Shown here: piece by piece, positions 19,589-59,443 of the stretch
Position numbering within the stretch: position 1 is the first letter of the stretch
Layout of the letters: each line of letters begins with the position of its first letter
Origin: an uncultured Rikenellaceae bacterium
GTDB taxonomy: Bacteria > Bacteroidota > Bacteroidia > Bacteroidales > VadinHA17
NCBI GenBank assembly: GCA_964596715.1
Contig: CAZQVL010000002.1
Location: 50,829-114,828, forward strand
Length of the DNA: 64,000 nucleotides
Direction of reading: 5' to 3'
The notes under the pieces: model-generated
The model's input: only the letters and a program-made list of their open reading frames with translations
Databases searched by the model: none
What the model was told of the DNA's origin: nothing
Position numbers and translations under genes: made by a program

Positions 19589-20001
19589 AAGTGCCTTTTG
19601 AACAAAAGTGATAATACCTTATCAAAAAGTCCGAGTATCGGTATCCCAATAAAAATGTAAACCAACCATACCGGAAGGTTTAAATCCGGAAGCTCACTGA
19701 ATTTTAGTTCCGGAATATTTAACCTGATATTTTGAAATTTCTCAAGTAACGACATCCCCAAAGTACCAGTCTCACTCCCCGGGGTAAGAACTGCAGCAAT
19801 TATGAGCACGGCTACCACAGCAGCTGAAATTAGAGGAACCATTTTTTCCGTCCGTAGCATGTAATGTACTTTTGCAGGTCTGGTTTCAATATGAATCCTT
19901 GTCATGGTTTTTGATGTGAAACCCTCCGGGGCTTTCTCAATACTCACAGGATTAATGTATTGCCTCAAAAGATCCTCGTTATATTCAGTTTGTCGGTTCA
20001 T
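19585..20001 (-). CDS. Membrane protein, anti-sigma-like partner of the upstream ECF remnant
   Basis: EKAPEGFTSKTMTRI N-terminus plus two TM helices; start overlaps the sigma-remnant stop by 17 nt. Confidence 0.65.
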   Translation of the reverse strand: MNRQTEYNEDLLRQYINPVSIEKAPEGFTSKTMTRIHIETRPAKVHYMLRTEKMVPLISAAVVAVLIIAAVLTPGSETGTLGMSLLEKFQNIRLNIPELKFSELPDLNLPVWLVYIFIGIPILGLFDKVLSLLFKRHF

Positions 20002-20146
20002 AGTATATTACTTTTTTCTTTTCAATTTTCCGGAGGATATCTGCCATTCTCTGTCTTGCTCTGAATAGCCTAATCTTGATATTATCTTCCGGCACATTTC
20101 CAATATTGAACAAATCACTTTTATTAATTCTGTTACTTTGACGCAT
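19985..20146 (-). pseudogene. ECF sigma factor remnant (region 4.2 and C-tail only)
   Basis: 53-codon frame ending NVPEDNIKIRLFRARQRMADILRKIEKKKVIYYEPTN*; regions 2 to 4.1 are absent. Confidence 0.8.
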
Positions 20147-20166
20147 AAAATTATTAATCGGTTTCA
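20140..20166 (-). promoter_or_regulatory. ECF-type promoter of the deleted sigma gene
   Basis: Minus strand TGAAAC-N17-CGTC, a perfect AAC-N17-CGTC match. Confidence 0.6.
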
Positions 20167-20258
20167 GGATTTAAATAGAAAATTATCAGCTCTGGTCAAT
20201 AAAAAATAACTTATAATCCGCATTGTATTCCGCTGCAAATACTTTTTTCATTAACTAT

Positions 20259-20284
20259 GTAACCATTTTCTATGGACCTGTGTC
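20259..20284 (+). promoter_or_regulatory. ECF-type promoter of the divergent membrane-protein gene
   Basis: GTAAC-N17-TGTC, 40 bp upstream of the ATG at 20324. Confidence 0.55.
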
Positions 20285-20323
20285 TAAAGGTTAAAAAAGA
20301 GTGTTTAACCAATTTTAAAAGTC

Positions 20324-20665
20324 ATGGAAGTATTAATTGCTTTTATCGCATTGTTTGCAACAGTATTTGGTATAATGTATGTTTATTACACCACACGTAA
20401 CAAAGAACGTCTGATACTTATTGAGAAAGGTGCAGATGCCAGCCTCTTCAATACAGGAAAGGTAGGCAGAGGATCTGTCAGCGGGGGTAAAATAGTACTG
20501 AAAACGGGAATGTTCTTTATGGGTATTGCGATTGGTGTAATAGTCGGTGCAATACTGAGTTATTTGAATGTTCTGGAGGCGGGTCCGAATTATGTATCAA
20601 TGATCTTCTTTTTCGGTGGCCTCAGCCTGGTCATTTATTACCTGATCGACAGGAAAAATAAATAG
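20324..20665 (+). CDS. Small membrane protein (DUF6249-like)
   Basis: TRNKERLILIEKGAD motif, three TM helices, divergent from an ECF locus. Confidence 0.75.
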   Translation: MEVLIAFIALFATVFGIMYVYYTTRNKERLILIEKGADASLFNTGKVGRGSVSGGKIVLKTGMFFMGIAIGVIVGAILSYLNVLEAGPNYVSMIFFFGGLSLVIYYLIDRKNK

Positions 20666-20698
20666 TAGAGACGCACTATTTGTGCGTCTCTACTATTT
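20660..20698. repeat. REP-like palindrome that may act as a bidirectional terminator
   Basis: 17-bp perfect stem AAATAGTAGAGACGCAC / GTGCGTCTCTACTATTT with a 5-nt loop, between convergent genes. Confidence 0.85.
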
Positions 20699-21972
20699 TA
20701 ATTAATGTAGAATTCAATCATTTTTCTGATTGCTTCCCTGCACACAGAGCAGAAGCCTTTCGGGCCATTACTTTTCATCCGGCACTCCATTTCAGCACGA
20801 TAAATACCTTTTGCAGAATAACCACCTCCTTCAAATAATCCCGTAACATTACTGTATTGTTCTTCTGCCGGCGTTGGAACAGGCGTACTTTCCAATATGA
20901 TGTTTTTCCATTTGGAATCAAAATCAACAAGAGTAGTAATATTGGGTTCCCATGGTTCAACATCGAGAGGGTAAAACTCATCATATGCCACGGCTGAGGA
21001 ATAGTATTCATCTGCCAGTCCTGCAAATCCATGACCAAATTCATGCACAAATACTTTTGGAGACAGGGGATGTCCTGTTGTGGTTCCACTGTAATAATTG
21101 TATATACCGCCGCCACCGTATCGGGTACTATTAATCAGAACAACAATATTATCATGGGGAACTGATGCAGCATAATCATTTAGAGTTTTAATGTCGTGGG
21201 TTGTCAGGTATCTGTCAAGATCGAAAGTATAGAAGCTTGAATTCAGAGCTGTATTCAGATAGATACCCTCTCCCGGGATATCAGTACCTGAATCTTCAGA
21301 CACAGCTTCAACTGCCCAAATATTGGTTTTGCTCTTATAATCACTGAATGGTGTGTCTGTGAAGAGCACTTCTGCCATCTTTCTTGCATCTTCTATGAAT
21401 TTTCCCATCTCCTCTTTCTTATAACCCTCAGCAATAAAAGCAATGTCAACGCAATTAGCAGGTTCTCCAGTGAAATTGATTTTTGTAACTCCTACATTAA
21501 CAGGTTTCTCTTTTATTATGAAATAGTTATCAGGATCTATAATCGTATCATAAAGTGTGGAGAATAGGCCTGTTCGCTCCCTTATGCTCAGTACAAACCG
21601 GATCCTGTTTTTTGGGAAGGGCATTGTGGCCACTTCATAAAAACTTCGTTCCATGATCTTAGCCTCAGCAGTGGTCTGCCATTCCTGAAAAAGGGTGCAG
21701 AATCCCCTGGAATAAATGAGGATATTATCGGAGAGATCAAATATTTCATATTTAAAATTACCATAATTAAACGGATCAATAAGGTTTCTTTTCGATCCGG
21801 CCCAGAATGGCTCTTCCTTCATCCCGACAGGATAAACAACCGTTTTCTGATCGTTGCCGGCGAGCATAAAGTCAAATCTTAATACTCTATCATTAAAATA
21901 TTTATCAAAATCAACCTGTGTCAGAACGGGTTGTGAGCAACAGAGAAGAAGAAATATCAGAGATCTTTCCAT
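20698..21972 (-). CDS. M64-family (IgA protease-like) metallopeptidase
   Basis: IAFIAEGY, RYGGGG, HEFGHGFAGLADEY, GLFEGGGY, CRMKSN...FCSVC. Confidence 0.9.
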   Translation of the reverse strand: MERSLIFLLLCCSQPVLTQVDFDKYFNDRVLRFDFMLAGNDQKTVVYPVGMKEEPFWAGSKRNLIDPFNYGNFKYEIFDLSDNILIYSRGFCTLFQEWQTTAEAKIMERSFYEVATMPFPKNRIRFVLSIRERTGLFSTLYDTIIDPDNYFIIKEKPVNVGVTKINFTGEPANCVDIAFIAEGYKKEEMGKFIEDARKMAEVLFTDTPFSDYKSKTNIWAVEAVSEDSGTDIPGEGIYLNTALNSSFYTFDLDRYLTTHDIKTLNDYAASVPHDNIVVLINSTRYGGGGIYNYYSGTTTGHPLSPKVFVHEFGHGFAGLADEYYSSAVAYDEFYPLDVEPWEPNITTLVDFDSKWKNIILESTPVPTPAEEQYSNVTGLFEGGGYSAKGIYRAEMECRMKSNGPKGFCSVCREAIRKMIEFYIN

Positions 21973-22067
21973 TGGACATATTTTATATAAGACATGTAAA
22001 GCTAAAAATTTACATCAATACAAGTTAATAATTTGTATAATTTTGCCTCGGACTAAAAATTAATATT

Positions 22068-23285
22068 ATGGCTGATCTGAACACCAGAATTAGTGATTTT
22101 ATCTGGAGGAATATTAGTGAAAAAAAAGTAAAAGGTGTGAAAGATCCCTTCTGGGAGTCACTCCGGAATACAGGAACAGAACTCTGGCTCGATACTGGTG
22201 ACATGAAGGAAGCTGAAGAAAACTGGACAGCCGAGATGAGTGCTCTTACTACTAATAATACTCTTCTTAATAATGAGATACAAAAAGGTATTTATGATGC
22301 ATTTATTTCAGAGGCAAAGAGTATTGTAAGGGATCTGCCTGCGGAAGACAGGGTAAAAGAGATAGCTTTTATTCTAAATTCCAGGCATGGATTACGGTTG
22401 GCTCTTAAATTCGGGGGGTACGTAAGTGTTGAGTTACATACAGATACAGCCCATGACATTAAAGCAATTGAATACTATGGCAGAAGATATCATGAAATAT
22501 GCCCTGAACAGTTTATCATCAAAGTTCCTTTTACTGCTGAAGGATTGATAGGTGCGCGAAGGCTAAAGGAATCAGGTGTTAGAGTCAATTTCACTCTTGA
22601 ATTCAGTGCACGCGAAAATGTAATTGTGACAAAGGTTGCCAGGCCAGACTATCTGAATGTTTTTATGGGGAGAATAGGTGCCTATATGATTAATAATAAG
22701 CTTGGTGATGGATCAGGTGCGGGAGAGATGGCAGTTATAGCCTCACAGAACTGGGTGACTGGTCTTTCGGCTCAGAATCCGTGGCAGACAAAACTTATTG
22801 CTGCAAGTCTGAGACATTATGCACAACTTGAACTTCTGGCCGGAACGGATGTTTTAACTATACCCCCAAAGGTTGCTGCAGCAGGCAGGAAAGAATTAAG
22901 TGGCCGGTTCTCATCCAGAACTCATGAGAACTACGAAGTCAGTCTTTATTCATCAGCAAAGAATGCGCATATTGAAAAGTTCTGGGAGGTTGATGATAAT
23001 GTTCTAAGCCTGGCAGAAAGACTTTCGCGGAATGTTCCCGCTACCGGGCAGGAACTAATTGAGATAGCACATGATGAGGGTTGTGGTGATATCTTCCCTG
23101 TACTTACCAGGGAAGAGAAATCATTAATTGCTTCGGATGGCAAGATTCCGGTCCATTCCAGGTGGGAAAAGAAGATAAGGGAAGGCACTATTGCTCCCGA
23201 CACCCTTCTGACTCTTGCGGGAATAGCCTCATTTACTACAGATCAGCAGATGCTTGATGAAAGAATAAAAAGCATTATTGAATAA
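22068..23285 (+). CDS. Transaldolase-family protein (long form)
   Basis: ELWLDTGD, LTTNN, IIKVPFTAEGL (Schiff-base Lys), VNFTLEFS, TKLIAASLR. Confidence 0.82.
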   Translation: MADLNTRISDFIWRNISEKKVKGVKDPFWESLRNTGTELWLDTGDMKEAEENWTAEMSALTTNNTLLNNEIQKGIYDAFISEAKSIVRDLPAEDRVKEIAFILNSRHGLRLALKFGGYVSVELHTDTAHDIKAIEYYGRRYHEICPEQFIIKVPFTAEGLIGARRLKESGVRVNFTLEFSARENVIVTKVARPDYLNVFMGRIGAYMINNKLGDGSGAGEMAVIASQNWVTGLSAQNPWQTKLIAASLRHYAQLELLAGTDVLTIPPKVAAAGRKELSGRFSSRTHENYEVSLYSSAKNAHIEKFWEVDDNVLSLAERLSRNVPATGQELIEIAHDEGCGDIFPVLTREEKSLIASDGKIPVHSRWEKKIREGTIAPDTLLTLAGIASFTTDQQMLDERIKSIIE

Positions 23286-24027
23286 GTCTGGCTGTGCGCT
23301 GCTTCATTATTTCATAAAGGAGTATCCCTGCAGATACTGAAACATTAAGTGAAGAAATAGTCCCTGTAACCGGTATTCTGACCTGGTAATCGGAAAAGGC
23401 TGTTATTTCACGGCTTATCCCCCGGTCTTCAGAGCCAAGGATAAGCACTGCAGGACCAGTAAGAGGGACTTCATAAACCATTGACTGCGACTTTTCAGTC
23501 CCGCATATCACTTTCAGTCCCGAGTCTTTAAGATACTCTATTGACCTGACAATGCTTTTTTCCCTGCATACAGGGAATGAATGCAAAGCTCCTGCAGAAG
23601 TTTTAATTGCATCACCAGTTATTCTGGCTGATCCTTTTTCGGGGATCACAACAGCATGCACTCCCATACAGTTGGCGGTACGTACAATTGCACCAAAGTT
23701 CCTGACATCCGAAACACCATCAAGAGCAACAATAAGAGGATCTTCTCCTTTTTCGAATATCACAGGGAGAAGGTTAGTGATTTTCTGATATTCAATTAAT
23801 GACAGCCATGCTAAAACACCCTGATGATTTTTCCGGGTCACCATTTCTATTCTTTCGGGCGGAACAATACGGTAACTTATATCATGCTTTTTAACTTCAT
23901 TCATCATTTCATGATACAAGGCTCCCTGAAGTCCCTGGCGGATCAATAAGCGATCGATCTGTCTCCCGGCTCTGATTGCCTCTATAACAGCCCGCAAACC
24001 AAAAATACAGTCAGATTCTTTTATCAT
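23275..24027 (-). CDS. rlmB: 23S rRNA G2251 2'-O-methyltransferase (TrmH family)
   Basis: NHQGV, LDGVSDVRNFGAIVRT, GSEDRG, SLNVSVSAG. Confidence 0.92.
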   Translation of the reverse strand: MIKESDCIFGLRAVIEAIRAGRQIDRLLIRQGLQGALYHEMMNEVKKHDISYRIVPPERIEMVTRKNHQGVLAWLSLIEYQKITNLLPVIFEKGEDPLIVALDGVSDVRNFGAIVRTANCMGVHAVVIPEKGSARITGDAIKTSAGALHSFPVCREKSIVRSIEYLKDSGLKVICGTEKSQSMVYEVPLTGPAVLILGSEDRGISREITAFSDYQVRIPVTGTISSLNVSVSAGILLYEIMKQRTARLIQ

Positions 24028-24032
24028 CTTTT

Positions 24033-25385
24033 CTATATATCACCGGGATTATCAAGACGGTAAACTATGCCTCTTCTCCAGCTTGCTATTGCCTGATCCC
24101 AGTTAGTTATAAGTGTTTCACTGCGGCTGATATAATAGTCGTTATCGGAGGAGATACTGTTTCTTTTTTTGAATGTGAAATACAGATAATCTTCTTTTAA
24201 CCTGTATCTTCCTCCCCATGAGGATTTTATGACTGGTTTTCGATAACCCCATCTTTCCCCGTCAGAGGTCTTATATACTTTATCGGGAGGTCCGTATATT
24301 ATATAAATCATACCTCTTTCGGTCCTCCATCCCTCTTTAAAAGATGTGAAATAAAAGTTAGAGTAATATACTCTTGTATAAAAGATCCTTATAAGCTCCC
24401 TCGATTTTTCAACATTACCTCCGCATTTAATCCAGAATTCATCCAGTGCAACTTTTGGTTTCGGGCTCGAGGTTAAAGATGCTATCTCATCCTGTGAAGA
24501 AAGGTAAGCAAGAGGTTCTATCATCACCTCAGGAGTAGTCATTGAAGGATATGTCTCACCGAAATTATAAAAAGTGAAACCATCTCTGATATCCCTATCT
24601 GTCGTGCACAGGTATACACCTTTTTGCGGGAACATCATGGGTAGAGTGTCGGAGTAAGGAAATACAATAACAGTATCCGGTTCATAATCAAGAGTTTTTT
24701 CCGGAAGGAGCATTGATGGAGGATCAGGAATACCTGTTAATGGTTTATAAAATGAAACATAAATAGAATCAACAGGATTTCTTGGATAAATAAGGTTAAC
24801 ATATTCGTTTTCTCTCAATACAGGATTGAAAAGTTCATTCTTAATAAAATGTCCCTGAGCCCTGAAATTGTATTTATTATTATACGACAGTGTGTTAAAC
24901 GGGATAAATGCCTGTATTACCTGCGTCCGGAGCCTGTCCAGTATTTTGACCTCCGCCATATAGTCAACTCCTCTTTCAACCCTGAGCGGAATATTATAAG
25001 TGTATTCAGGGCGTGACTCTTCTTTAACGATACTGATATTGTAAACTGCTGTATCTGTCAGAATCCTGCCACTGGTTATATTATAAAGCTTGACAGTTAC
25101 AAGTATCATTGCCATAGGCACACCCTGAGGATTTGCTTCCGAGAAAAAGAGATCACCTGTAAAAAATTTAATCGAGAGGAGTGAGGACTCATCCGATTGA
25201 TTGAATACTTTATACCTCGGATTAATAGGGTTCCTCGATGGATTATAAAGATATGAGAGGTCTTTGGAATCAATAGCAGGCTGCATTGTTTTACAGGATA
25301 TCATAACTGCCATAGTCATTAAAAGAATAGGTAGAAAAGATAAAATCCTGGTAGAAATATTATGTCTGTTCATATTGTTATTCAT
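24033..25385 (-). CDS. GWxTD-domain lipoprotein
   Basis: Lipobox (MISC); EGWRTERGMIYIIYGPPD. Confidence 0.8.
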   Translation of the reverse strand: MNNNMNRHNISTRILSFLPILLMTMAVMISCKTMQPAIDSKDLSYLYNPSRNPINPRYKVFNQSDESSLLSIKFFTGDLFFSEANPQGVPMAMILVTVKLYNITSGRILTDTAVYNISIVKEESRPEYTYNIPLRVERGVDYMAEVKILDRLRTQVIQAFIPFNTLSYNNKYNFRAQGHFIKNELFNPVLRENEYVNLIYPRNPVDSIYVSFYKPLTGIPDPPSMLLPEKTLDYEPDTVIVFPYSDTLPMMFPQKGVYLCTTDRDIRDGFTFYNFGETYPSMTTPEVMIEPLAYLSSQDEIASLTSSPKPKVALDEFWIKCGGNVEKSRELIRIFYTRVYYSNFYFTSFKEGWRTERGMIYIIYGPPDKVYKTSDGERWGYRKPVIKSSWGGRYRLKEDYLYFTFKKRNSISSDNDYYISRSETLITNWDQAIASWRRGIVYRLDNPGDI

Positions 25386-25391
25386 TTATAT

Positions 25392-26156
25392 TCAAAGGTT
25401 GTTTTGTTTCCAGCCCATTCTTATCCGGCACAACTCAGTATTATCAGTTGAGCGGTAAACAGAATGATTATAAAAGTTGTTATTATCTTGTTCCTTTTTT
25501 GAGGACCTGATAATAATATCGTCATTATAATGCGATTCGGAAAGATAGTTGATTTCAACAAAATGCGGGGTATTTTTCATACAGAATTCGAGGTCATAGC
25601 TATCTGTCACCCATTTAATATAGTTTACATTGTTTGTATGCAGATTAACATCAAGATCGCTTATGTTTACTCTGAATTCTGAACTGATCTGACTATTATT
25701 CGGAACAGGTTCTAATTTTGCTGCATTTCTCTGGAGGGATTTATTTTCGGGAAAGACTTTATTAAAACCGGTAAGGTTATTGTCGGGTCTTTGAATTTTT
25801 CTGGTAGTATTGTGTACAATAAGCCAGGAGGATGTAGCTGAAGCTATTAGCCTGCCGTCAGTATAACATGCCTCATAGTCACGAAGGGCAAATAGTTTTT
25901 CTGTTCCTCTGGGCCATGTAGTAACAATCAGAGTATCTTCCCACGAAGGCATTCGGGTAATTTCCGCATACATTCGTGAAAGAACCCAGAAACAGTGGTC
26001 TTTTAATAGATCATCCCTTCCATAACCAAGTTTTATGGCATGTTCAGATGCTACATCCTGAAAGAAATTAAAGAGGGAATAAAGGCTGAGTTTTCCCTCG
26101 GGTCCTGTTTCATAAACATGAACCCTGTACTCCTTTTTAAGTTGCAGTTCGTTCAT
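25392..26156 (-). CDS. Acyl-ACP thioesterase
   Basis: FQDVASEHA, FWVLSR, TWPRG, DLDVNLHTNNVNY. Confidence 0.88.
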   Translation of the reverse strand: MNELQLKKEYRVHVYETGPEGKLSLYSLFNFFQDVASEHAIKLGYGRDDLLKDHCFWVLSRMYAEITRMPSWEDTLIVTTWPRGTEKLFALRDYEACYTDGRLIASATSSWLIVHNTTRKIQRPDNNLTGFNKVFPENKSLQRNAAKLEPVPNNSQISSEFRVNISDLDVNLHTNNVNYIKWVTDSYDLEFCMKNTPHFVEINYLSESHYNDDIIIRSSKKEQDNNNFYNHSVYRSTDNTELCRIRMGWKQNNL

Positions 26157-28099
26157 TCGGTGGTTTTTCGTAGAAAATCTTCAACTTCATGGTAAAATGA
26201 TACCCAATTGTTCATTTCTTTATTTAGACGTTCCCTGAGAAGATTGTAATTAGTGTAGATATCTGCATCAACACTGGCAGGGTGATCCGGATTTGAAAGT
26301 ATTTTGTCCATATCCATTAATTCTGCTTCCATCTTTTCAATCTGCTTCTCAGAATCTTTAAGCCTTTTGCGTAACTTTCGCAGGTTTCGCTCATATTCCT
26401 TCTTATCAAAGTATCGCTGTTTATTTACAGAGATATTATCCCTGTTTACAACGTTAACGGATTTATCTTTCAGTTCTATATCCCTCAGGTCCTTTATTTT
26501 CTTTTTTCTCAGGAAATCATAAATTCCTCCAATGTTCTCTTTGACAGTTTTATTTCTGAACTCATACACTTTTTCCACCAGCCCGTCAAGAAAATCCCTG
26601 TCATGAGAAACCACAATTAATGTGCCATCATATTTCATCAGTGCCTGTTTCAGTATATCCTTTGAATGGATGTCAAGGTGATTGGTAGGTTCATCGAGCA
26701 CAAGCAGATTGGCAGGTTCCAGGAGTAGTTTTGCCAGAGCAAGACGTGATCGTTCACCACCCGAAAGCACTTTGACTTTCTTTTCAATATCATCCCCACT
26801 GAACAGAAAAGCCCCTAGCAGATCACGGATTTTTGTTCTTATTTCTCCTTTTGCCACATCATCGATGGTCTGAAAAACTGTCTTGTTGTCATCAAGCAAT
26901 TCATCCTGATTCTGGGCATAATAACCAGTTATTACATTATGTCCCTTTTTAAATTTGCCTGTAAAATTGAGTTCACTATTAATAATTCTTGCCAGGGTTG
27001 TTTTTCCTTCCGCATTACGGCCCACAAACGCAATTTTTTCACCTCTGGTAACAGTGATTGCAATTTTGTTCAGAACAAGATGCGAACCATAGCATTTAGA
27101 AAGGTCCTCTGCTTCTATCACTACTGTGCCCGACCGTGGTGCAGGTGGAAACCTTACATTAATGGAACTGGTATCTTCTGCATCTACTTCAATCCGGTCA
27201 AGCCTGGCCAGTTGTTTAATCTTCGACTGGACCTGGACGGCCTTGGTTGCTTTGTACCTGAACCTTTCAATGAATTTTTCAGTATCTTCTATCATTTTTT
27301 GCTGGTTCCTGTAAGAGGCGAGCTGTTGTTCTCTGCGCTCTTTTCTCAGGATCACAAATTCAGACCAGGAAGCTTTATAGTCATATATCTTCCCGAGGGA
27401 TATCTCTATTGTTCTTCTGGTTATGTTATCCAGAAAAGCACGATCGTGGGAAACAAGCATAACCGCTCCGGAATAGCCTGTAAGATATGTTTCAAACCAC
27501 TGAATTGACTCAATATCAAGATGGTTTGTCGGTTCATCAAGCAGCAGTAATGAAGGTTTCTTTAAAAGTATCTTTGCAAGCTCAATACGTATCCTCCATC
27601 CCCCGCTTAATTCTACAGTGGGCCTGTTAAAATCCTCCCTTTCAAATCCAAGGCCAGTAAGTGCCAGTTCGGTTTCTGCAATATAATTTGACCCGCCAAG
27701 CATACGGAATCTCTCTTCAGACAAAGTCAGAAAATCACATAGTCTCATATATTCAACTGATTCATAGTCTGCCCTGGAGGAAATTTCTTTACTGTATTTT
27801 TCTATTTCTTCCGACAGATTTATTATATCAGAGAAGGCTGAGACAGTTTCATCCCAGACTGTTGTATTATCATCAACTCTCATTTGCTGAGGAAGATAGC
27901 CAATTGTAACATCTCCGGACATATCTATTACTCCGGTGGTTGGATTCTGGATACCTGCAATGATTTTAAGAAGTGTCGATTTCCCGGAACCGTTTTTACC
28001 TGTAAGCCCAATCCTGTCATGCTCATTGATAAGAAATGATAGATTTTTTAACAGGTCAAAACTGCCAAATGAAACACAAACATCCTGTACCGCAACCAT
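26153..28099 (-). CDS. ABC-F family ATPase
   Basis: Two ABC domains (GKNGSGKS, LSGGWRIR, LSGGERSR, DEPTNHLD), no TM segments, coiled-coil tail. Confidence 0.92.
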   Translation of the reverse strand: MVAVQDVCVSFGSFDLLKNLSFLINEHDRIGLTGKNGSGKSTLLKIIAGIQNPTTGVIDMSGDVTIGYLPQQMRVDDNTTVWDETVSAFSDIINLSEEIEKYSKEISSRADYESVEYMRLCDFLTLSEERFRMLGGSNYIAETELALTGLGFEREDFNRPTVELSGGWRIRIELAKILLKKPSLLLLDEPTNHLDIESIQWFETYLTGYSGAVMLVSHDRAFLDNITRRTIEISLGKIYDYKASWSEFVILRKERREQQLASYRNQQKMIEDTEKFIERFRYKATKAVQVQSKIKQLARLDRIEVDAEDTSSINVRFPPAPRSGTVVIEAEDLSKCYGSHLVLNKIAITVTRGEKIAFVGRNAEGKTTLARIINSELNFTGKFKKGHNVITGYYAQNQDELLDDNKTVFQTIDDVAKGEIRTKIRDLLGAFLFSGDDIEKKVKVLSGGERSRLALAKLLLEPANLLVLDEPTNHLDIHSKDILKQALMKYDGTLIVVSHDRDFLDGLVEKVYEFRNKTVKENIGGIYDFLRKKKIKDLRDIELKDKSVNVVNRDNISVNKQRYFDKKEYERNLRKLRKRLKDSEKQIEKMEAELMDMDKILSNPDHPASVDADIYTNYNLLRERLNKEMNNWVSFYHEVEDFLRKTTE

Positions 28100-28239
28100 A
28101 AAAATACTTAATTGAGGACAAATATAGAAAAAGTATGAAAGCCGGGGAAGTATGGTGTATTAGCAGAAAGCGTTATCTTTGCAATAATGACCAAATAAAC
28201 ACATTATTAATCACGATAAATTAAATAGTTACTAATGCC

Positions 28240-29466: not shown

Positions 29467-29518
29467 AAAATTAATCCGGGATCATTATTCCAGGATATAT
29501 AGAGAAAACATACTGATA

Positions 29519-30931: not shown

Positions 30932-31003
30932 AGGTTATAGATTAGATGTTCAGTAATATAAAATTTAATGTATATTTATCGTTCGTTTAAAAGATAACCG
31001 GTA

Positions 31004-31819: not shown

Positions 31820-31830
31820 TTGTTTTCGGT

Positions 31831-34119: not shown

Positions 34120-34177
34120 ATAGTTTTTATTTTGCACTGTACTGCTGATTTTTTACATTTGTCGGATTTTCGGGTGA

Positions 34178-34243
34178 CCCTCCTTCGCTAAAGCTTCGGA
34201 CTGCGTCCGACGGAGCGGACTTCGTCCGACGAAGTCGGAGGGC
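34178..34243. repeat. Nested palindromic (REP-like) element upstream of tRNA-Ser
   Basis: Outer CCCTCC/GGAGGG arms enclosing TTCGCTAAAGCTTCGGA and a perfect inner palindrome GACTTCGTC-C-GACGAAGTC. Confidence 0.7.
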
Positions 34244-34269
34244 AAAGGTGGCAATAATAAGCCGGAACA

Positions 34270-34357
<88 letters not shown>

Positions 34358-34361
34358 GAAG

Positions 34362-34546
34362 CCAAATTACTCCCACAGCTTGCTGTGGGATTTTTGTTTT
34401 CGGCAGGCCGATCCAGGCTTGCCTGAGTGAGGACTGCAGAAAACAAAAAGATCAACGAGTGAAACGAGTTGGGAGTAATTTGGAGTTGCAGATACCCCAA
34501 AAGGGATCACGCCCGAATTGCATGAGGGCGTAATCCCTCAGACTCC
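34362..34546. repeat. tRNA-linked multi-hairpin (cruciform) element
   Basis: 14-bp outer inverted repeat CCAAATTACTCCCA/TGGGAGTAATTTGG, 11-bp inner inverted repeat, GCTTGC-capped side hairpins, and a further 11/12-bp hairpin at 34503-34537. Confidence 0.8.
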
Positions 34547-34566
34547 TGAACTTACCCCCAAGCCCA

Positions 34567-34586
34567 CTCTCTTAGCCATAAGAGAG
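34567..34586. repeat. Short hairpin after a C-rich tract
   Basis: CTCTCTTA-GCCA-TAAGAGAG preceded by CTTACCCCCAAGCCC. Confidence 0.5.
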
Positions 34587-34787: not shown

Positions 34788-35528
34788 ATGGAAAGCATTA
34801 TAGAGGATTATACTTGCGATATTTCAAAAAGGTGCCGTCAGAAAGCCATCAAATGCCTTATATGTCTCTTAGTCCTTTCTGGAATATTCTGTTTAATACA
34901 ATGCGGTGAACAAAACGGCAATTCCGACAAAAAACCAGGTATAGATAATCTTACCGATGATTCTCTTCTGACACTGGTTCAATACAGAACTTTCCAGTAC
35001 TTCAGTGACGGGGCCGAAACTACATCCGGGATGGCAAGGGAACGTTATCATGTTGACGGTATTTATCCGGAAAATGATATGAATGTTGTTACTTCAGGTG
35101 GTACAGGTTTCGGTGTGATGGGCATACTGGTTGGTATTGAAAAGGGCTTCATAACGAGGGATGAAGGTCTTAAACATCTTCAGAAGGTTGTCACTTTTCT
35201 CCAGGGTGCTGACCGTTTTCACGGGGCCTGGTCACACTGGATCTACGGCGAAACAGGTAAAGTGAAACCGTTCTCTCAAAAGGATAACGGAGCAGATATT
35301 GTTGAGACTGCTTACCTTATACAGGGGTTACTTGCTGTAAGACAATATTTTGAAGACGGAACCGCATTCAGTATTGAGAAAGACTGGTATTCTAAGAGAT
35401 ATCTTGCCATCGACCAGGGACCAGTAATTGTTATGATCGGGAACTACCGGACAGATTTGCTATGGAATCTTTTTATGTCGTGCCCTGAAATAAAATCGGG
35501 ATTAAATTCACTTGGATTTATTTACTAG
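34788..35528 (+). pseudogene. Glucoamylase-like/GH144 (endo-beta-1,2-glucanase-type) lipoprotein with a large in-frame internal deletion
   Basis: N-terminal motifs (SGMARER, VVTSGGTGFG, RFHGAWSHW, DNGADIVETAYL) join directly at about 35361 to the extreme C-terminal motif (AFS...YLAIDQGP...LLWNLFMSCPE); 246 aa. Confidence 0.75.
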
Positions 35529-37667: not shown

Positions 37668-37677
37668 CAATCATGCT

Positions 37678-39390: not shown

Positions 39391-40668
39391 ATGGAACGAT
39401 TTACTGGTGTTATAGGTATTCTTATTCTACTGGGACTTGCATTCCTATGGTCGAATAACCGAAAAGCCATTAACTACCGTGTTGTTTTTACAGGACTTGG
39501 TCTGCAACTGGCGCTGGCTGTTTTTATTCTTAAAGTGCCACTTGGCCAGGATATCTTTTACTGGCTTGGAAAGGCAATAAATAAGCTTCTCGATTTTTCC
39601 CAGGAAGGTGGATTGTTTGTTTTTGGTGATCTTACAAAAGTAACAGAGATCCTGCCGGAAGGTATTGTGAAGAGTGGTATTTTTTTGTTTGTTTTATTAC
39701 CGACAATAATATTTGTCTGTGTTCTCGTTGCTATGGCTTATCATATTGGTTTAATGCAAAGGATTGTGGCGGTTATTGCCCGGTTCGTTCACTGGGCAAT
39801 GAGGGTAAGCGGCAGTGAGGCTTTGTCGAATGTGGCAAGTGCTTTTGTAGGGCAGGTCGAAGCTCAGATCATGATACGGCCGTATCTGTCAGGTATGACA
39901 ATGTCGGAATTACTGGCTTCAATGACCGGTAGTATGGCATGTATTGCAGGTGGAGTTATGGCTGTATATATCTCAATGGGTGTCCCTGCATCATATCTGC
40001 TCGCTGCAAGCCTGATGGCTGCTCCGGGAGCCCTGGTAATTTCAAAGATAGTCTTTCCTGAAACAGAAGAATCAGAAACAAAAGGGAGAGTAAAGCTCGA
40101 AGTAAAAAAGGAATATACGAACATTATGGATGCTATTTCTCATGGCGCCACCGATGGAATGAAAATATCGATAAATGTGATAGCCATGTTGATCGGTGTT
40201 ATTGCTCTTATTGCACTTGTTGATGCTCTGCTCGGTTATTTCGGTCATTTTCTTGCGTGGGTAGGAGTATCACTTGAAGGAATAGGTCTTCATGTTGAAA
40301 ACTTACGTCTGAAAGATGTTGTAGGTGCTTTTTTTTCACTTTTTGCAATTGTAATGGGTGTTCCGCCTGAAGAATCACTTACTGTAGGCTCATTAATGGG
40401 AACTAAGATGGTAATAAATGAATTTGTTGCCTATACGGATTTTTCACCGATGATACAACAGGGTGTCCTGAGCACCAAATCAGTTATTATTGCAAGTTTC
40501 GCACTATGCGGATTTGCTAATTTCAGTTCCATTGCCATTCAGTTGGGCGGAATAGGTGCGATGATTCCTCATCGAAAAGCTGACCTTGCCAGACTGGGAT
40601 TTAAGGCAATGCTCTGCGGTACTATGGCTTCGTATATTTCCGCCTCGTTGGCCGGGATTTTGTTGTAA
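39391..40668 (+). CDS. nupC: Na+/nucleoside cotransporter (CNT/NupC family)
   Basis: ASAFVGQVEA, LAASLMAAPG, GTKMVINEFVAY, FALCGFANFSSIAI. Confidence 0.92.
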   Translation: MERFTGVIGILILLGLAFLWSNNRKAINYRVVFTGLGLQLALAVFILKVPLGQDIFYWLGKAINKLLDFSQEGGLFVFGDLTKVTEILPEGIVKSGIFLFVLLPTIIFVCVLVAMAYHIGLMQRIVAVIARFVHWAMRVSGSEALSNVASAFVGQVEAQIMIRPYLSGMTMSELLASMTGSMACIAGGVMAVYISMGVPASYLLAASLMAAPGALVISKIVFPETEESETKGRVKLEVKKEYTNIMDAISHGATDGMKISINVIAMLIGVIALIALVDALLGYFGHFLAWVGVSLEGIGLHVENLRLKDVVGAFFSLFAIVMGVPPEESLTVGSLMGTKMVINEFVAYTDFSPMIQQGVLSTKSVIIASFALCGFANFSSIAIQLGGIGAMIPHRKADLARLGFKAMLCGTMASYISASLAGILL

Positions 40669-40678
40669 TTTGTCGTTG

Positions 40679-40767
40679 CGGAGAGAGGGGGGATCGAACC
40701 CCCGGTCCCGCGATAGCAGGACAACGGTTTTCGAGACCGCCGCATTCGACCACTCTGCCATCTCTCC
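40679..40767 (-). tRNA. tRNA-Ser(CGA)
   Basis: Minus strand GGAGAGATGG...GCGGT-CTCGAAA-ACCGT...GGGGGTTCGATCCCCCCTCTCTCCG with long variable arm. Confidence 0.96.
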
Positions 40768-44913: not shown

Positions 44914-44939
44914 ATTATGCTGTAACGCCAGTTACTTCA

Positions 44940-47438: not shown

Positions 47439-47542
47439 AGTCCAGAGGTGTATTGATTATAATATTTTAATATTGATAAGATAATGGAATTCAAGGATTC
47501 CAGGCTATATTTATATTTTATTAATTAGCCAGTTAGATTTGA

Positions 47543-51066: not shown

Positions 51067-51145
51067 AGCAGAAGATTTAAATATCCAAATTTATTAAAAA
51101 TATTACCACCCTCAAAAATACTTGCCTGCAATTTTTCAGACTGAA

Positions 51146-53767: not shown

Positions 53768-53905
53768 TTCTCAAGCTACTAATATATGAGAAATAAAAGA
53801 AAATAGATATTCCCTTTTTGTCCTTTTTATTAACTATCTTAAATTTTATGTTAATCCTGATAATCCAGAAATGAGTAAGAAAGAGAATGGATATTTGTTA
53901 TTATT

Positions 53906-55213
53906 TTAATACAGATCGGGTGTATAGTTTTCGAGGATCTCTTTAAGCCTGTTAAGAAATTTTCCCGCAAGAGCACCATCGATAACTCTGTGGTCATAGC
54001 TTAATGACAGGATCATAAACTGACGGATGCCAATAACATCACCATCGGGTGTCTCAATTACTGCAGGTGTTTTTCTGACTGCTCCGGTCCCAAGTATGGC
54101 TGCCTGGGGCTGATTTATGATAGGGGTTCCGGAAAGGTTGTTATAACTTCCAAAGTTAGTTACAGTAAATGTTCCCCCTTTTATTTCATCGGGTTTTAAT
54201 TTATTTTTTCTGGCTCTGTCAGCCAGGTCATTGACAGCTCTGGCCAATCCGGTCAGATTTTTCTCATTTGCATTTTTTATTATCGGTACGATAAGGTTTC
54301 CGTCAGGTAAAGCAGTAGCCATACCGATATTGATATTTTTCCTGATGATTATTTTATCACCTTCGACTGATATGTTAAGCATCGGATATTCGTGCAAAGC
54401 TCTGGCAGTAGCATCAATAAAGATAGGTGTAAGTGTAAGTTTCTGTCCCTCAGTGGCAAGGAATTTTTCCTTTATTCTGTTTCTCCAGTTCACCAGGCGG
54501 GTTACATCAGCATCGATGAATGATGTTACATGCGGGGAAGTTCTTTTTGACATAACCATATGTTCAGCAATTAGCTTACGAACACGGTCCATCTCTATTA
54601 TCTCATCCCCTTCTGCAGAGGTGCCGGAAATAATTTGTTTTTCTTCTGTTTCTGAAGTCTTTAATGTTTCTGCTTTCTTTTTATCTTCTGCTGCTTTTTT
54701 TCTTTCTTCCAGGAGTTTTAATACATCATCTTTGGTAATTCTTCCATCCATTCCGGTCCCGTTCAGTTTATCCAGGTCGGAATAGCTGATTTCTTCCCGG
54801 GCAGCTATGCTTCTGACAAGAGGGGATATAAATTTGCCTGAAGGAGTCCTGCTTTTCATATCATGGGATAGAGTTTCAACTTCCTTCTTTTCCTGTCTGG
54901 CAGTATTAATAGTTGCCCTGATTCTTTCAACCTCTTTGGCGATTTTCTTTGAATCTTCCGGACCGGTCTCAACAATGGTTTCAATTACAGCGATCACATC
55001 TCCTACTTTTGCTACGGACCCTTCAGCAGCTGCAATGGAAACAATAGTACCTGCAGCAGGAGCAGGCACCTCTGAATCGACTTTATCAGTGGCTACTTCT
55101 ACGATAGGGTCTTCTTCTTTGACTACCGAACCTTCAGAAACAAGCCATTTATTAATTATTGCTTCGATAACTCCTTCACCCATCGCGGGCAATACTATGT
55201 TCATTCTTGCCAT
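53906..55213 (-). CDS. 2-oxoacid dehydrogenase E2 (dihydrolipoamide acyltransferase)
   Basis: Lipoyl motif ATDKVDSEV, E3-binding SPLVRSIA...GRITKDD, catalytic DHRVIDG. Confidence 0.93.
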   Translation of the reverse strand: MARMNIVLPAMGEGVIEAIINKWLVSEGSVVKEEDPIVEVATDKVDSEVPAPAAGTIVSIAAAEGSVAKVGDVIAVIETIVETGPEDSKKIAKEVERIRATINTARQEKKEVETLSHDMKSRTPSGKFISPLVRSIAAREEISYSDLDKLNGTGMDGRITKDDVLKLLEERKKAAEDKKKAETLKTSETEEKQIISGTSAEGDEIIEMDRVRKLIAEHMVMSKRTSPHVTSFIDADVTRLVNWRNRIKEKFLATEGQKLTLTPIFIDATARALHEYPMLNISVEGDKIIIRKNINIGMATALPDGNLIVPIIKNANEKNLTGLARAVNDLADRARKNKLKPDEIKGGTFTVTNFGSYNNLSGTPIINQPQAAILGTGAVRKTPAVIETPDGDVIGIRQFMILSLSYDHRVIDGALAGKFLNRLKEILENYTPDLY

Positions 55214-55311
55214 GAATATGTTTTTTGTTCTTATCGTACTAACAACTATGACAGCAATATGTTTGATAAATCTTTGTGTTAATAAAACAAGATAAGCGGT
55301 ACTACTGGAAC

Positions 55312-55488
55312 TTACTGATTACTTATTTCATTATGAATGACTCGTGAAAGCCTCTTAACTCCTTCTTCGATCTCATCATTGTCGGAAAAGCAGAAATTGA
55401 TACGCATTGTATTTTTGCCCGAATTATCACAGAAGAAAGTTGATCCTGAAACAAATGCAACATTAAGGAAATGATTTATGGATTTCAT
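55312..55488 (-). pseudogene. PLP-dependent aminotransferase (class I/II) remnant, start fused in-frame to the last 50 codons
   Basis: 58-aa frame [58 protein letters not shown]; its ATG overlaps the recR stop (TGATG). Confidence 0.8.
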
Positions 55489-56102
55489 CATTGCTGATAG
55501 GGATTTCGGTTCGTAATTGCCCTTCCAAGAGTTACTTCATCAGTGTATTCAAGCTCATCGCCGATAGCCACACCTCTGGCAAGTGTAGTAAGGAGGACAT
55601 CATATTTATTAAGTCTTCTGTAAAGATAGAAATTAGTGGTATCGCCTTCCATTGTTGTACTAAGTGCGAAAATAATTTCTTTAACTCCACCTGCTTTTAA
55701 TTTTTCTTCAAGATTTTCGATTTTAAGGTCGGAAGGTCCAATACCGTCAACCGGTGAAATGATACCACCAAGCACATGATATACTCCTTTGAACTGTCTT
55801 GTATTTTCAATCGCCATTACATCCTGGATATTCTCGACAACACAAATTATTGTTTTGTCTCTTTTCTCATCTTTACAGATGTTGCATACTTCAGTGTCAG
55901 ATATATTATTGCAGATACTGCAATAGTTGATCTCAGAACGTAATTTTATTATGCACTCTCCGAATCTTCTTACTTCTTCAGTATCTTTTCTTAAAAGGTT
56001 CATAACCAACCTAAGAGCTGTTTTACGCCCGATACCGGGAAGTGATGCGAATTCATTTACTGCATTCTCCAGTAATCTTGAAGGGAACTCTGTGAAACTC
56101 AT
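55488..56102 (-). CDS. recR: Recombination protein RecR
   Basis: [18 protein letters not shown]...CNIC zinc finger, YHVLGG, TMEGDTT, ELEYTDE. Confidence 0.96.
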
Positions 56103-56201
56103 ATTAAGATGTTTTGGACAAAATTAATTCAATTATTGCCTTTAAACTAAACAGGTCAGGAATTTTTTGTCTGCATTCTTTTTACTATTCTTGCAGATTA
56201 T

Positions 56202-57662
56202 TTGCCCGGGATGTCACCATCACTTATTCTTGGAATATTCCTTGTTTACACAGCTCTGCTCTTTATTGTAACATGGATAACAGCACACAAAGCCGACAGC
56301 CAGTCGTTCTATATAGGGAATAAGATATCTCCGTGGTTTGTTGTTGCCTATGGGATGATAGGTGCATCGCTTTCAGGGGTTACCTTTATGTCAGTACCCG
56401 GATGGGTACAGGAGACACAGTTCAGCTATATGGTTGTTGTTTTCGGGTACCTGTTCGGTTATTTTGTCATAGCCCTCATTTTGCTGCCTTTATATTACAG
56501 GTTAAAACTAACTTCAATCTACACCTATCTCGATCAGCGCTTTGGGTTCTGGTCATACAAAACCGGTGCAGGTTTCTTTATCATATCAAGAACACTTGGA
56601 GTGTCGCTTCGTATGTTTTTGGTTATTAATGTATTACAAGTATTTGTTTTTGATTCCTGGAACGTTCCTTTCTGGATTAATGTCCTTATTTTTATTGTAC
56701 TTATTATTTTATATACTTTAAAAGGGGGAATAAAGACTATAGTCTGGACTGATACGCTGCAGACAACTTTTATGTTATTAGCAGTAGTATTTTCAATAAT
56801 TTATATCAGCAAAGGAATAGGAGTATCAATTTCAGGACTTATATCCCATGTCAACGACAGCTCTGTTTCACGAATGTTTATTACTGATTGGCACCATGAA
56901 AGATTTTTTATCAAGCAGTTTCTAAGCGGGATGTTTATTACAATAGTGATGACAGGACTTGATCAGGAGATGATGCAAAAGAATCTGAGCTGTAAGAATA
57001 TCAGGGAAGCTCAGAAGAATATGTTCACCTTCAGCGGTATTCTGGTTCTGGTAAATTTCATATTTTTGTTACTTGGTGCCCTTCTGTTTATTTATGCTCT
57101 GAACAAAGGAATCTCTGTGGCTTTGACAGATGACCTGTTCCCAACTATAGCTTTTCAATATCTGGGACCGGTTGCGGGTATAGTTTTTCTTATCGGGTTG
57201 ATTTCTGCAGCTTTCCCGAGTGCTGACGGTGCACTGACTTCACTTACCACATCAGTAAGCATTGACTTTCTGGGACTTGATCGCAAAAAAGAAATTTCAG
57301 AAAGAACCAGGACAAGGATCAGGTACGCTGTTCATATGACCATAGCACTTATATTCTTTATCAGTATATTGATTTTTAGAAAGTTGAGCGACAGAGCTGT
57401 TATAGATAAACTTTTTACAATAGCTGGTTATACATATGGGCCTTTACTGGGACTTTATTCATTCGGACTTTTTACAAAAAGGAAAGCAAACGACAGACTG
57501 ACACCTTATATTGCAATCATTTCTCCTGTAGTGTGTTACTTCCTCAGTCTTTATTCGGTGGAATTATTCAACGGGTATAAATTTGGTTTCGAATTACTAC
57601 TGGTTAATGGATTCCTGACATTCACCGGCTTACTGATATTCAGCCGTAAGCATGTTATTTAA
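56202..57662 (+). CDS. Sodium:solute symporter (SSS family)
   Basis: MIGASLSGVTFMSVPG, TIVWTDTLQ, GLDQEMMQKNL; about 13 TM helices. Confidence 0.9.
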   Translation: MPGMSPSLILGIFLVYTALLFIVTWITAHKADSQSFYIGNKISPWFVVAYGMIGASLSGVTFMSVPGWVQETQFSYMVVVFGYLFGYFVIALILLPLYYRLKLTSIYTYLDQRFGFWSYKTGAGFFIISRTLGVSLRMFLVINVLQVFVFDSWNVPFWINVLIFIVLIILYTLKGGIKTIVWTDTLQTTFMLLAVVFSIIYISKGIGVSISGLISHVNDSSVSRMFITDWHHERFFIKQFLSGMFITIVMTGLDQEMMQKNLSCKNIREAQKNMFTFSGILVLVNFIFLLLGALLFIYALNKGISVALTDDLFPTIAFQYLGPVAGIVFLIGLISAAFPSADGALTSLTTSVSIDFLGLDRKKEISERTRTRIRYAVHMTIALIFFISILIFRKLSDRAVIDKLFTIAGYTYGPLLGLYSFGLFTKRKANDRLTPYIAIISPVVCYFLSLYSVELFNGYKFGFELLLVNGFLTFTGLLIFSRKHVI

Positions 57663-58375
57663 CGATCGGTTTCCTCTGGTTCTTCCTGGACCTGGACCTC
57701 CTCCTTAATTTTTACATTAATGGTCTTATAAGGGATATTCAGTATCATATAATAACTTATACCAGCACTGGTGGATTTTCCTCCTCTGCCGAATCCCGGA
57801 AAATATATGGGTCTGAGATCCTTCCCAGTCCCGGCTGATATCAATAATCTTAACCTGATTGTCCATCCTAAACTGAGATTTTTAAATACTTCTGTTTTTA
57901 CTCCCGGAGCTACTTCAACGAAATGTCCCCAGCTTGTTCTGGATGGTATGGAAGAGGTTGTTGTTCCCCAGTAATTTTCGTGTTGAAATGAAGGGGTTGC
58001 AAAATTGAAGACGCTTACACCATATCTTAATCCGATCCCGGCCCAGTATCTTCCTTTAGAGATATCAGGTTTCAATAAATTAAAATCAACTCCGGCGCGG
58101 GCAAATGAGCCTTTAGTCCTGTAATCATAGTTATATTGTGAATATTTGTATTTAAGGAATCCGCCTTCAAGAACAAATGTCATTTTTTCATTCCGCTCAT
58201 AAGAAACAAATCCTTCAACGCTCATGTTGTTTTCGTCTGTTAGATAAATAACAGGGCCTGAAATTTCAATTCCGGCTCTAAGATTAAGCGGAAAGAGGAG
58301 ACTGTCCTGTCCTTTAAGCAGACACGGAACTGCAAGGATCAGAAAACTAATAAAATATGCGTACGTTCTCCTCAT
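57659..58375 (-). CDS. Outer-membrane beta-barrel-like protein (DUF6048-like)
   Basis: Signal peptide, amphipathic strands, RPIYFPGFG. Confidence 0.7.
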   Translation of the reverse strand: MRRTYAYFISFLILAVPCLLKGQDSLLFPLNLRAGIEISGPVIYLTDENNMSVEGFVSYERNEKMTFVLEGGFLKYKYSQYNYDYRTKGSFARAGVDFNLLKPDISKGRYWAGIGLRYGVSVFNFATPSFQHENYWGTTTSSIPSRTSWGHFVEVAPGVKTEVFKNLSLGWTIRLRLLISAGTGKDLRPIYFPGFGRGGKSTSAGISYYMILNIPYKTINVKIKEEVQVQEEPEETDR

Positions 58376-58814
58376 TAATGGTAGTTATATTATTATTCCT
58401 TACGATTATTGTATCAATGATGTTATTTGTGACAATATATGAATCGAGTATATGGTAAAAGGTATAGCCACACTCTTTTGAGATAAGATGAGGATAGCTG
58501 CTGTACTTCAGTATTATTGTGTCGGTTATTCCATTGATTCTGATAATAAACGTGCAATTATCAGTTGCTGAATTTAGAGGAAGCAGGGCTGGTTGAACAG
58601 ATACGGCTTTATTGTACAGTTTATTGGTATCCATGCCCATGCCGTACAAAGTAAGGCTGTCGGGTGCCTTATAATTACCTGTGGCGTCAAGATAGAATGA
58701 TGCCTTAAGAAAGGCATTTGTCTCTTCAAAACATGCTTCCGGAGAGCAGGAAATCAGATAAGTAAAAAAACCTGCAATGATTAGTTGAACAGCAACTGAA
58801 ACAAATCTGGTCAT
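58347..58814 (-). CDS. Lipoprotein (DUF6452-like)
   Basis: ISCSPEAC, LISKECGY, ENVRIFY; coupled to the DUF6048-like gene. Confidence 0.7.
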   Translation of the reverse strand: MTRFVSVAVQLIIAGFFTYLISCSPEACFEETNAFLKASFYLDATGNYKAPDSLTLYGMGMDTNKLYNKAVSVQPALLPLNSATDNCTFIIRINGITDTIILKYSSYPHLISKECGYTFYHILDSYIVTNNIIDTIIVRNNNITTINEENVRIFY

Positions 58815-58931
58815 TTAACTGTTAAAAGTATCAAAAATATAAAAAATCCCGTCTCACTGTCTGTGAAAGGCATAATGATTCATTTATTCTTTAATGAATT
58901 TTATAAGACAAACAGATAAAGTAAACTCCTC

Positions 58932-58991
58932 AACGCCCTAACGCCCTAACGCCCTAACGCCCTAACGCCCTAACGCCCTAACGCCCTAACG
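58932..58991. repeat. Tandem octamer repeat (AACGCCCT)7, i.e. (TTAGGGCG)n on the minus strand
   Basis: Seven perfect units plus a 4-nt partial unit, counted directly. Confidence 0.97.
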
Positions 58992-59443
58992 TTTCCCTGG
59001 AACTTCGGCAGGTTTTTCAATATTCCACTAATACCGTTTTTAATTTTTGAAAGCATATTAGACTCTTTTTCATTGACAAAGTATATTCCGGATATAAGAT
59101 CTTTGTATTTTTCTGCAACGTAGCTTCTCCTGAGCTTAAGGGTAGGAGAGAGTTCTCCAGGCAAATCGGCTGCCCAGAAGATTTTTTCGAGTCTTGACTG
59201 CAATGCTGCTCCACCCGAGACCATTACCTGGAGCTCTCCTCCGAGAGCTTCCTGCCACTTACTGAATATCAGTTTTCTTGCAATTTTATCACCTTTATTG
59301 TATCCGAGTGCAAGCAGGCCATAACTTACCCAGTTAACATAGTTCCGGACATCTTCAGTGGAATATTTGATCCATTCGTTGTCCTGTTTCCCTCCGTACA
59401 TGTCATTGCGGGGATATTTCTCATAATTCAGCTCAATACGAAT
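58970..59443 (-). pseudogene. Long-chain fatty acyl-CoA ligase (FadD-like) remnant with two in-frame internal deletions
   Basis: N-terminal ELNYEKYPRNDMYGGKQDNEWIKYS...GDKIA, then mid-protein RKLIFSKWQEALGG...VSGGAALQ...FWAA, then C-terminal GELSPTLKLRR; the AMP-binding loop and GYGLTE motif are missing. Confidence 0.85.

Follow-up and report, generated by a model that had tools for sequence, protein, structure and literature searches.

Engineered in-frame deletions in operons keep the start and stop contexts of the gene that is removed; translation reaches the native stop and the downstream genes are unaffected. For natural gene loss, a deletional-bias model is said to go back to Mira, Ochman and Moran. 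Bacterial pseudogenes are purged rapidly (PMC2916853), and deletions whose size is a multiple of three nucleotides (3n) are in excess among them, an excess ascribed to microhomology and alternative end-joining, not to selection (Danneels et al. 2018, PMC6054270; for alternative end-joining, Chayot et al. 2010, cited within PMC6054270). Here we analyze four gene remnants in one stretch of 64,000 nucleotides from an uncultured Rikenellaceae bacterium (assembly GCA_964596715.1, contig CAZQVL010000002.1, positions 50,829 to 114,828 of the forward strand), hereafter the window. The genes encoded an extracytoplasmic function (ECF) sigma factor, a GH144 glucanase, a pyridoxal phosphate (PLP) aminotransferase and a FadD-like ligase. 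With a probability of roughly 0.8, they are ordinary pseudogene remnants of four dispensable genes, left by real deletions whose frame was kept by chance, by the 3n bias and by a probable filter against polarity. The remnants, with the basis for each call, are:

19985..20146, minus strand: ECF sigma-factor remnant (tblastn against a 191-amino-acid (aa) ortholog)
34788..35528, plus strand: GH144 (endo-beta-1,2-glucanase family) pseudogene remnant (PDB alignment and syntenic orthologs)
55312..55491, minus strand: PLP aminotransferase pseudogene remnant (intact syntenic orthologs and PDB search)
58970..59443, minus strand: FadD-like long-chain acyl-CoA ligase pseudogene remnant (homology to the FadD of relative L016)

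The locus resembles deletional pseudogene erosion in that dispensable genes are lost stepwise, remnants are brief and relatives show clean absence. It differs from the erosion seen in host-restricted symbionts and pathogens because the bacterium is a free-living sediment Bacteroidales whose genome is compact, and from typical deletional erosion because it shows only a few lesions, all of them large (0.6-1.7 kb) and in frame. As in PMC6054270, microhomology occurs at part of the junctions (43% in that paper versus one or two of four here). However, that paper deals mostly with deletions of ≤15 nt in reduced genomes, whereas the deletions here span 609-1035 bp, and k-mer phase explains four in-frame joins out of four only partly. 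The sigma remnants of the window and of a sister lineage differ by a 3-nt indel, and the four large joins are in frame, in a size class different from that of PMC6054270.

Two other known processes offer a comparison. The first join in FadD (J1, 9-10 nt), a GH144 deletion in relative L102 (~13 nt, 'DNGA(D/E)') and an ABC-F deletion in the sister lineage (within a ~30-nt similar Walker-B segment, 8 nt exact) are like the products of microhomology-mediated or slipped-strand deletion. All three are necessarily in frame because the repeats encode the same peptide. The joins in GH144, in the aminotransferase and at the second FadD site (J2) are unlike such products, with homology of ≤3 nt. The aminotransferase remnant, for its part, looks like an engineered non-polar construct, with an ATG over the recR stop, 9 codons and the last 50 codons; unlike engineered deletions, those in the window arose naturally and are known here from sequence alone.

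Four genes survive only as remnants

The window has a G+C content of 37-42% and tightly packed genes. Among species-representative genomes, the nearest are metagenome-assembled ones of uncultured Bacteroidales or 'Rikenellaceae' (AlaS identity 63-76%). A sister lineage (L093-L099) shows 95.5% nucleotide identity to the window, and dozens of JGI and Logan metagenome contigs encode proteins identical to those of the window.

The original prediction held that four genes had been hollowed out between intact neighbors by deletions that keep both ends and the reading frame. Homology and comparison with relatives confirmed that the four genes survive only as remnants and that the neighbor genes of all of them are full length. 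For each gene, full-length homologs are intact at the same syntenic position in relatives, and the parts essential for function are lost in the remnant. In relatives with the same gene order, each slot is variable: the gene is intact, absent or differently eroded. Retention of both ends held for GH144 and the aminotransferase; FadD has lost its native start and stop, and the sigma gene is present as a C-terminal piece only. We also screened each intergenic stretch of at least 40 bp by frame-agnostic blastx against the open reading frames (ORFs) of relatives, a tally valid within regions with relatives available. The four remnants were the sole matches, and no remnant had segments in more than one frame. 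Alignment to intact orthologs defined the breakpoints and direct repeats at all four joins with two recognizable flanks and showed that the predicted junction coordinates were accurate to a few bases.

The aminotransferase ORF encodes 59 aa, 9 N-terminal codons being fused in frame to 50 C-terminal codons. Its N-terminus, 'MMKSINHFL', resembles those of intact syntenic orthologs (MLTSINQFLS, MIKSVRRFLS, MIDSIDRFLS), and, as in these orthologs, its start ATG overlaps with the stop of recR. From 'NVAFVSGSTFF...' onward it matches the 404-aa orthologs from residue 355 to the end. The loss thus amounts to 345 codons (residues 10-354) at an in-frame join, 55465|55464, with no evident microhomology (≤2 nt). 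An extended tblastn alignment would make the remnant a purely C-terminal fragment; we rejected this reading, as direct comparison of the N-termini shows 9 native codons. The last ~47 residues align to PDB entries 1x0m and 3aov. The large domain with the PLP-binding region that characterizes fold type I is missing, and Pfam gave no match. In relatives, the slot between recR and the E2 acyltransferase gene holds an intact aminotransferase gene (L013, L016, L021, L022, L023, L025) or no gene (L014, L015, L020, L024; gaps of 57-113 bp), and it is a variable insertion point within the clade. A GT2 glycosyltransferase gene occupies this slot in L101 (9598-10365; window 55214-55487).

The GH144 ORF encodes 246 aa, with ~192 N-terminal codons fused in frame to ~54 C-terminal codons. 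Its residues 38-192 align with residues 23-181 of PDB 5gzk and its residues 192-244 with residues 403-455 (5gzh also matched). A total of ~221 internal codons out of ~440 residues were lost with the frame kept, at the join 35363|35364 ('EDGT|AFS'; possible homology ≤2 nt). This deletion removed the catalytic core: compared end to end with the solved 5gzh and 5gzk the catalytic domain is incomplete, and only positions 178-221 of the Pfam Glycoamylase profile are matched by the remnant. Intact syntenic orthologs lie upstream of the same lipoprotein-YkuD-YkuD genes in L103 and L107, and the slot is empty in L105, L106 and L110. In L102, an ortholog with 80% identity and the same downstream gene has been hollowed in frame by another deletion, whose two ends met at 'KDNGAD' and 'KHNGAE'. 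Within the species, the exact 246-aa product is found on 21 contigs. Two of 23 same-species contigs (L119, L121) carry a nonsense variant, TGG>TGA (W199*) at 35385-35387, six codons past the join, with nearby substitutions. In a different subclade, a 247-aa GH144 protein (P0130) is hollowed almost at the same place.

The FadD remnant consists of three segments in one frame, corresponding to residues 12-64, 318-360 and 564-616 of the L016 FadD. J1 lies within 59287-59278 ('GDKIA|RKLIF') and cost ~256 codons. Its microhomology of 9-10 nt, AAAATTGCA(A), encodes K-I-A on either side, and K-(I/V)-A is encoded at both parental sites in all relatives. J2 is at 59159|59158 ('FWAADLP|GELSPT'; homology ~3 nt) and cost 203 codons. 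The native start is unrecognizable, with an in-frame stop upstream; the native stop after '...NLPKF' is lost, and the frame continues into an 8-nt tandem repeat. The deletions removed the core motifs, including the adenylation motif 'TSGTTGNSKG'. The remnant therefore lacks the AMP-binding domain with P-loop and core motifs of an ANL enzyme, and its Pfam AMP-binding match (E=0.06) is below cut-off. The gene following alaS is an intact fadD in L016, L019, L024 and L025; fadD is absent from this position in L013, L014, L018, L020, L021, L022 and L023, and L015 retains an N-terminal stub. In the more distant L012, the N- and C-terminal parts of FadD have been fused in frame independently.

Other hollow or chimeric forms occur among database proteins. 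P0039 is a 176-aa hollow form of FadD from another lineage and P0047 is without 27 internal residues. In P0035, a UbiD-like N-terminus (34 aa; read as UbiD-like from the sequence and a precomputed Pfam PF20695 match) is in frame with a FadD C-terminus. P0035, P0047 and the GH144 protein P0130 are in-frame chimeras or hollows that gene callers list as normal proteins.

The sigma ORF encodes 53 aa. Codons 7-50 form one contiguous 44-codon piece corresponding to region 4.2, residues 148-191 of the 191-aa ECF sigma factor; no source could be traced for the first 6 codons, 'MRQSNR'. Residues 1-147 (regions 2-4.1) are missing. The combination of region 2 and region 4 expected of an ECF factor is thus absent, and Pfam Sigma70_r4_2 gave E=0.11. 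Pfam is insensitive for such short remnants, as also seen for the aminotransferase (no match) and FadD, with E=0.06-0.11 for FadD and sigma; a PDB sequence search returned nothing for these two. The remnant's 3' end overlaps the start of an anti-sigma gene by 17 nt, and in L100 and L111-L114 an intact sigma gene (191 aa) lies ahead of the anti-sigma ortholog.

The sister lineage carries the same sigma remnant, distinguished by the 3-nt indel and many amino-acid changes. The sigma deletion therefore predates the split between the window and its sister. Between the two, the remnant has a non-synonymous divergence (dN) of 0.099, ~5x that of its neighbors (~0.02), and a dN/dS of 0.51 based on 17 substitutions only. 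By these rates, the remnant appears to evolve nearly neutrally.

The prediction of clean, microhomology-guided deletion in place of point decay can now be qualified. The joins are indeed seamless, but clear microhomology is present at FadD J1 only, and point decay has taken place: FadD lost its start and stop, GH144 has the TGG>TGA allele, and the dN of the sigma remnant is raised.

The same junctions recur across metagenomes

We picked contigs by exact copies of the neighbor genes, not of the remnants; alleles were therefore sampled without bias. The lipoprotein gene was found on 23 contigs, and the GH144 join was identical in 23/23. For recR, the 59-aa aminotransferase ORF was present in those of 24 contigs that reach the spot, and the 143-aa FadD ORF was found on 15 contigs (L115 and 14 similar ones). 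At each locus, the same junctions are thus seen in 15-24 contigs that two pipelines (JGI and Logan) assembled independently. Among the same-species contigs, there were no intact alleles beside identical neighbor genes.

A metagenome scan with YkuD returned 8 distant loci only, the sister lineage not among them.

Preservation of the reading frame

The four testable joins (GH144, aminotransferase, FadD J1 and J2) are all seamless and all in frame, as predicted, without insertion sequence (IS) or repeat scar. Within the regions with relatives available, the in-frame tally is not just an artefact of ORF reading, because frame-agnostic blastx found the same four remnants, each in one frame. The chance of such a result had been put at 1/81. 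We built a null on the window's own genes from the phase of intragenic direct repeats at distances of 550-1100 nt. In-phase repeats made up 32-34% at 0-1 nt, 37% at 3 nt, 40% at 4 nt and ~52% at 8 nt. The preference of identical k-mers for 3n intervals was likewise reproduced here, for distances of 90-1500 nt. With junction-specific phase values, the probability of four in-frame joins out of four is ~0.02-0.03, a value that applies to a pattern chosen post hoc and stands before look-elsewhere correction; the figure of 1/81 was too small.

Several observations weigh against an account by ordinary decay. Microhomology is slight or absent at three of the four joins in the window, and for this reason the phase null lifts the probability of 4/4 only from 0.012 to ~0.02-0.03. 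The published 3n bias mainly concerns deletions of ≤15 nt, not of 600-1000 nt (PMC6054270). Finally, a tblastn survey that disregarded frame and covered 1.66 Mb of relatives yielded no out-of-frame tight internal deletions; chance and mechanism therefore may not explain everything. This survey used a relaxed overlap limit, as a stricter one missed known cases, and the frames were unchanged.

The sister lineage provides a further in-frame case. Its ABC-F gene has an in-frame 281-codon deletion between two Walker-B 'LDEPTNHLDI' motifs, which fuses both ABC domains. The product (L093 2743-3846) is a 367-aa single-domain protein and the next gene is still overlapped; in the window, the ABC-F gene is intact (26153-28099). 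The in-frame hollows of L102 and L012 came to light through protein searches, which favor in-frame forms. A genuine in-frame bias is plausible.

Features next to the remnants

Further features border the sigma and FadD remnants:

20147..20323, no strand: residual spacer (gene order of L111-L114)
19585..20001, minus strand: intact orphan anti-sigma-like membrane protein, 138 aa (homolog search)
58932..58991, no strand: perfect 8-nt tandem repeat, GTTAGGGC on the minus strand, x7.5, which replaces the FadD stop codon

The prediction that the sigma gene is an end fragment was correct, and the deletion reaches further than the gene. About 1.7 kb is gone at 20147-20323. The loss comprises the first 147 codons of sigma, the divergent promoter region and the gene of a 404-aa aldo/keto reductase. 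In relatives, the aldo/keto reductase (with a ferredoxin-like C-terminus; 1095-2310 in L111/L113) lies between DUF6249 and the sigma gene; no remnant of it is detectable in the window. The anti-sigma gene is constrained (dN/dS 0.25 versus the sister) and has been kept under purifying selection even though its sigma partner and their shared promoter region were lost before the lineages split. A joint sigma plus anti-sigma query returned anti-sigma homologs only.

The tandem repeat is found once in the window and not in relatives. It lies between the FadD remnant and a DUF6452/DUF6048 pair, ~120 nt upstream of the DUF6452 gene. Samples differ in its copy number and in the sequence of its unit, with 6 copies in L115 and GGGTGTTA variants in L116. 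Contig breaks are frequent at the repeat, where L116 and 8 others like it begin. One possibility is that it acts as a phase-variable spacer of the slipped-strand type upstream of DUF6452.

Two inverted tRNA-Ser genes (34270-34357 and 40678-40767) are associated with an inverted repeat of 42 nt (34329-34370 / 40665-40706). They enclose a segment of ~6.3 kb, from the GH144 remnant to a nucleoside transporter gene, which is oppositely oriented in relative L107, and a same-species contig (L010/L118) links 40669 to ~34558 in inverted orientation. This rearrangement is either an inversion polymorphism at the repeats of the tRNA genes or an assembly fold-back.

We rejected several other candidates for decay. 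Two gaps, of 774 bp (3520-4293) and 481 bp (1261-1741), are spanned by open frames of 257 and 149 codons, which we read as genes by open frame alone. Many 'fragments' of FadD and GH144 in the protein database were put down to probable sequencing error and not to decay because their source contigs, L011 and L101, are frameshifted in every gene; contigs of this type explain why short 'fragments' are so many in the protein search. In these two ENA contigs, all genes including alaS are split by frameshifts, and they are presumably noisy long-read assemblies. P0131 and P0163 both end at an A-rich stretch and were treated as probable sequencing errors.

Discussion

Taken together, these results suggest that the four genes are undergoing ordinary decay. 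Real chromosomal deletions of 0.6-1.7 kb took out gene interiors, probably through illegitimate recombination, and struck FadD at least twice. The remnants, which would encode no functional enzyme or sigma factor, would then drift towards the clean absence seen in several relatives, a course to which the lost FadD start and stop, the GH144 nonsense allele and the raised sigma dN are the visible signs. Interior deletions would persist because the overlapping start and stop codons and the signals of the neighbors stay undamaged. The frame at four of four joins would have been kept by chance, by the known 3n excess and probably by a fixation filter against polar out-of-frame alleles. The 3n excess itself can be understood because identical short words in coding DNA preferentially share codon phase.

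The closest competing explanation makes that last filter the dominant cause: in a large free-living population, out-of-frame internal deletions in operons would be polar, exposing untranslated RNA and reducing downstream expression, and would be purged, leaving in-frame deletions as the ones that fix. It overlaps with the explanation by ordinary decay and differs from it in the weight given to selection. A co-directional gene does follow closely behind every remnant: the anti-sigma gene (17-nt overlap), E2 (98 nt), the lipoprotein gene (142-154 nt) and DUF6452 (155 nt). A scan of three loci (GH144, aminotransferase and FadD) found no terminator-like site on the remnant's own strand before the downstream gene. 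The aminotransferase start overlaps with the recR stop. In relatives without the genes, the flanking genes are only 57-110 bp apart, a spacing that looks operon-like. The frame record points the same way, with 4/4 joins in the window, 1/1 in the sister ABC-F gene and zero out-of-frame cases in the 1.66 Mb of relatives. On the other hand, FadD has lost its native start, and with it translation from the original site. A nonsense allele segregates directly past the GH144 join, and read-through is for this reason not strictly required. The sample is small, L012 and L102 were found by searches that favor in-frame forms, and the promoter scan does not cover Bacteroidota promoters. We therefore consider it possible but on balance unlikely that selection dominates; selection against polar out-of-frame alleles may nevertheless add to the frame bias. 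A more general proposal would be that, where Bacteroidales live freely in large populations, gene loss within operons is filtered by frame at its first fixed step, and only non-polar, in-frame hollowing fixes. We offer it tentatively, as a conjecture somewhat less likely still. If true, in-frame hollow ORFs would be a regular, recognizable intermediate of gene loss and not a coincidence.

Another possibility is that the hollow ORFs are functional short proteins under selection, such as a regulatory peptide or an N-terminal module of GH144. In many assemblies these open frames are annotated as genes, and hollows of similar length occur elsewhere (GH144 P0130, 247 aa; FadD P0039, 176 aa). However, there is no conserved short family: breakpoints vary between lineages, and the hollowing events were therefore independent. 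The catalytic cores are gone, the GH144 nonsense allele is tolerated, the sigma remnant changes ~5x faster than its neighbors at non-synonymous sites, and some relatives lack the genes altogether. Function as short proteins is thus improbable.

A programmed or site-specific elimination of DNA that cuts out gene interiors precisely, as considered in the original prediction, found no support and is highly improbable. The joins are seamless, in frame and without IS or repeat scar, as such a process would have it, but neither the conserved junction motif nor the constant breakpoints of site-specific excision are present. The four joins have no motif in common, the gene map shows no recombinase nearby, and relatives show other breakpoints (L102, L012) and all stages from intact to absent. 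FadD, moreover, required two separate events and point lesions.

Assembler k-mer lengths typically exceed 10 nt, although the k of these assemblies may differ. Junction homologies of ≤10 nt are below the typical length, so the assembler should not have been misled. The systematic mis-assembly that had been suspected, with interiors present in the cells and collapsed by assemblers, is therefore very unlikely, judged from the assembled contigs, and effectively refuted: the window is evidently metagenomic in origin and there is assembly trouble nearby (contig breaks at the 8-nt repeat beside FadD, the L010 fold-back at the tRNA-Ser repeat), but identical joins recur on 15-24 contigs per locus from two pipelines, the intact allele was never found, and the same contigs carry a population single-nucleotide polymorphism just past one join.

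We conclude that the window records ordinary gene decay, with a frame bias that is mild and partly described already. The short 'hypothetical' products of 59, 143 and 246 aa that are called in dozens of metagenomes stem from hollow pseudogenes, and counts of genes or families should leave them out. The relatives provide a natural series from intact to hollow to stub to absent for four accessory genes in one clade. The joins give a modest hint that frame-preserving deletions are favored when genes are lost from operons. If this were true genome-wide, the 3n bias published for small indels would reach to kilobase deletions as well, and mechanism could be told apart from selection more easily.

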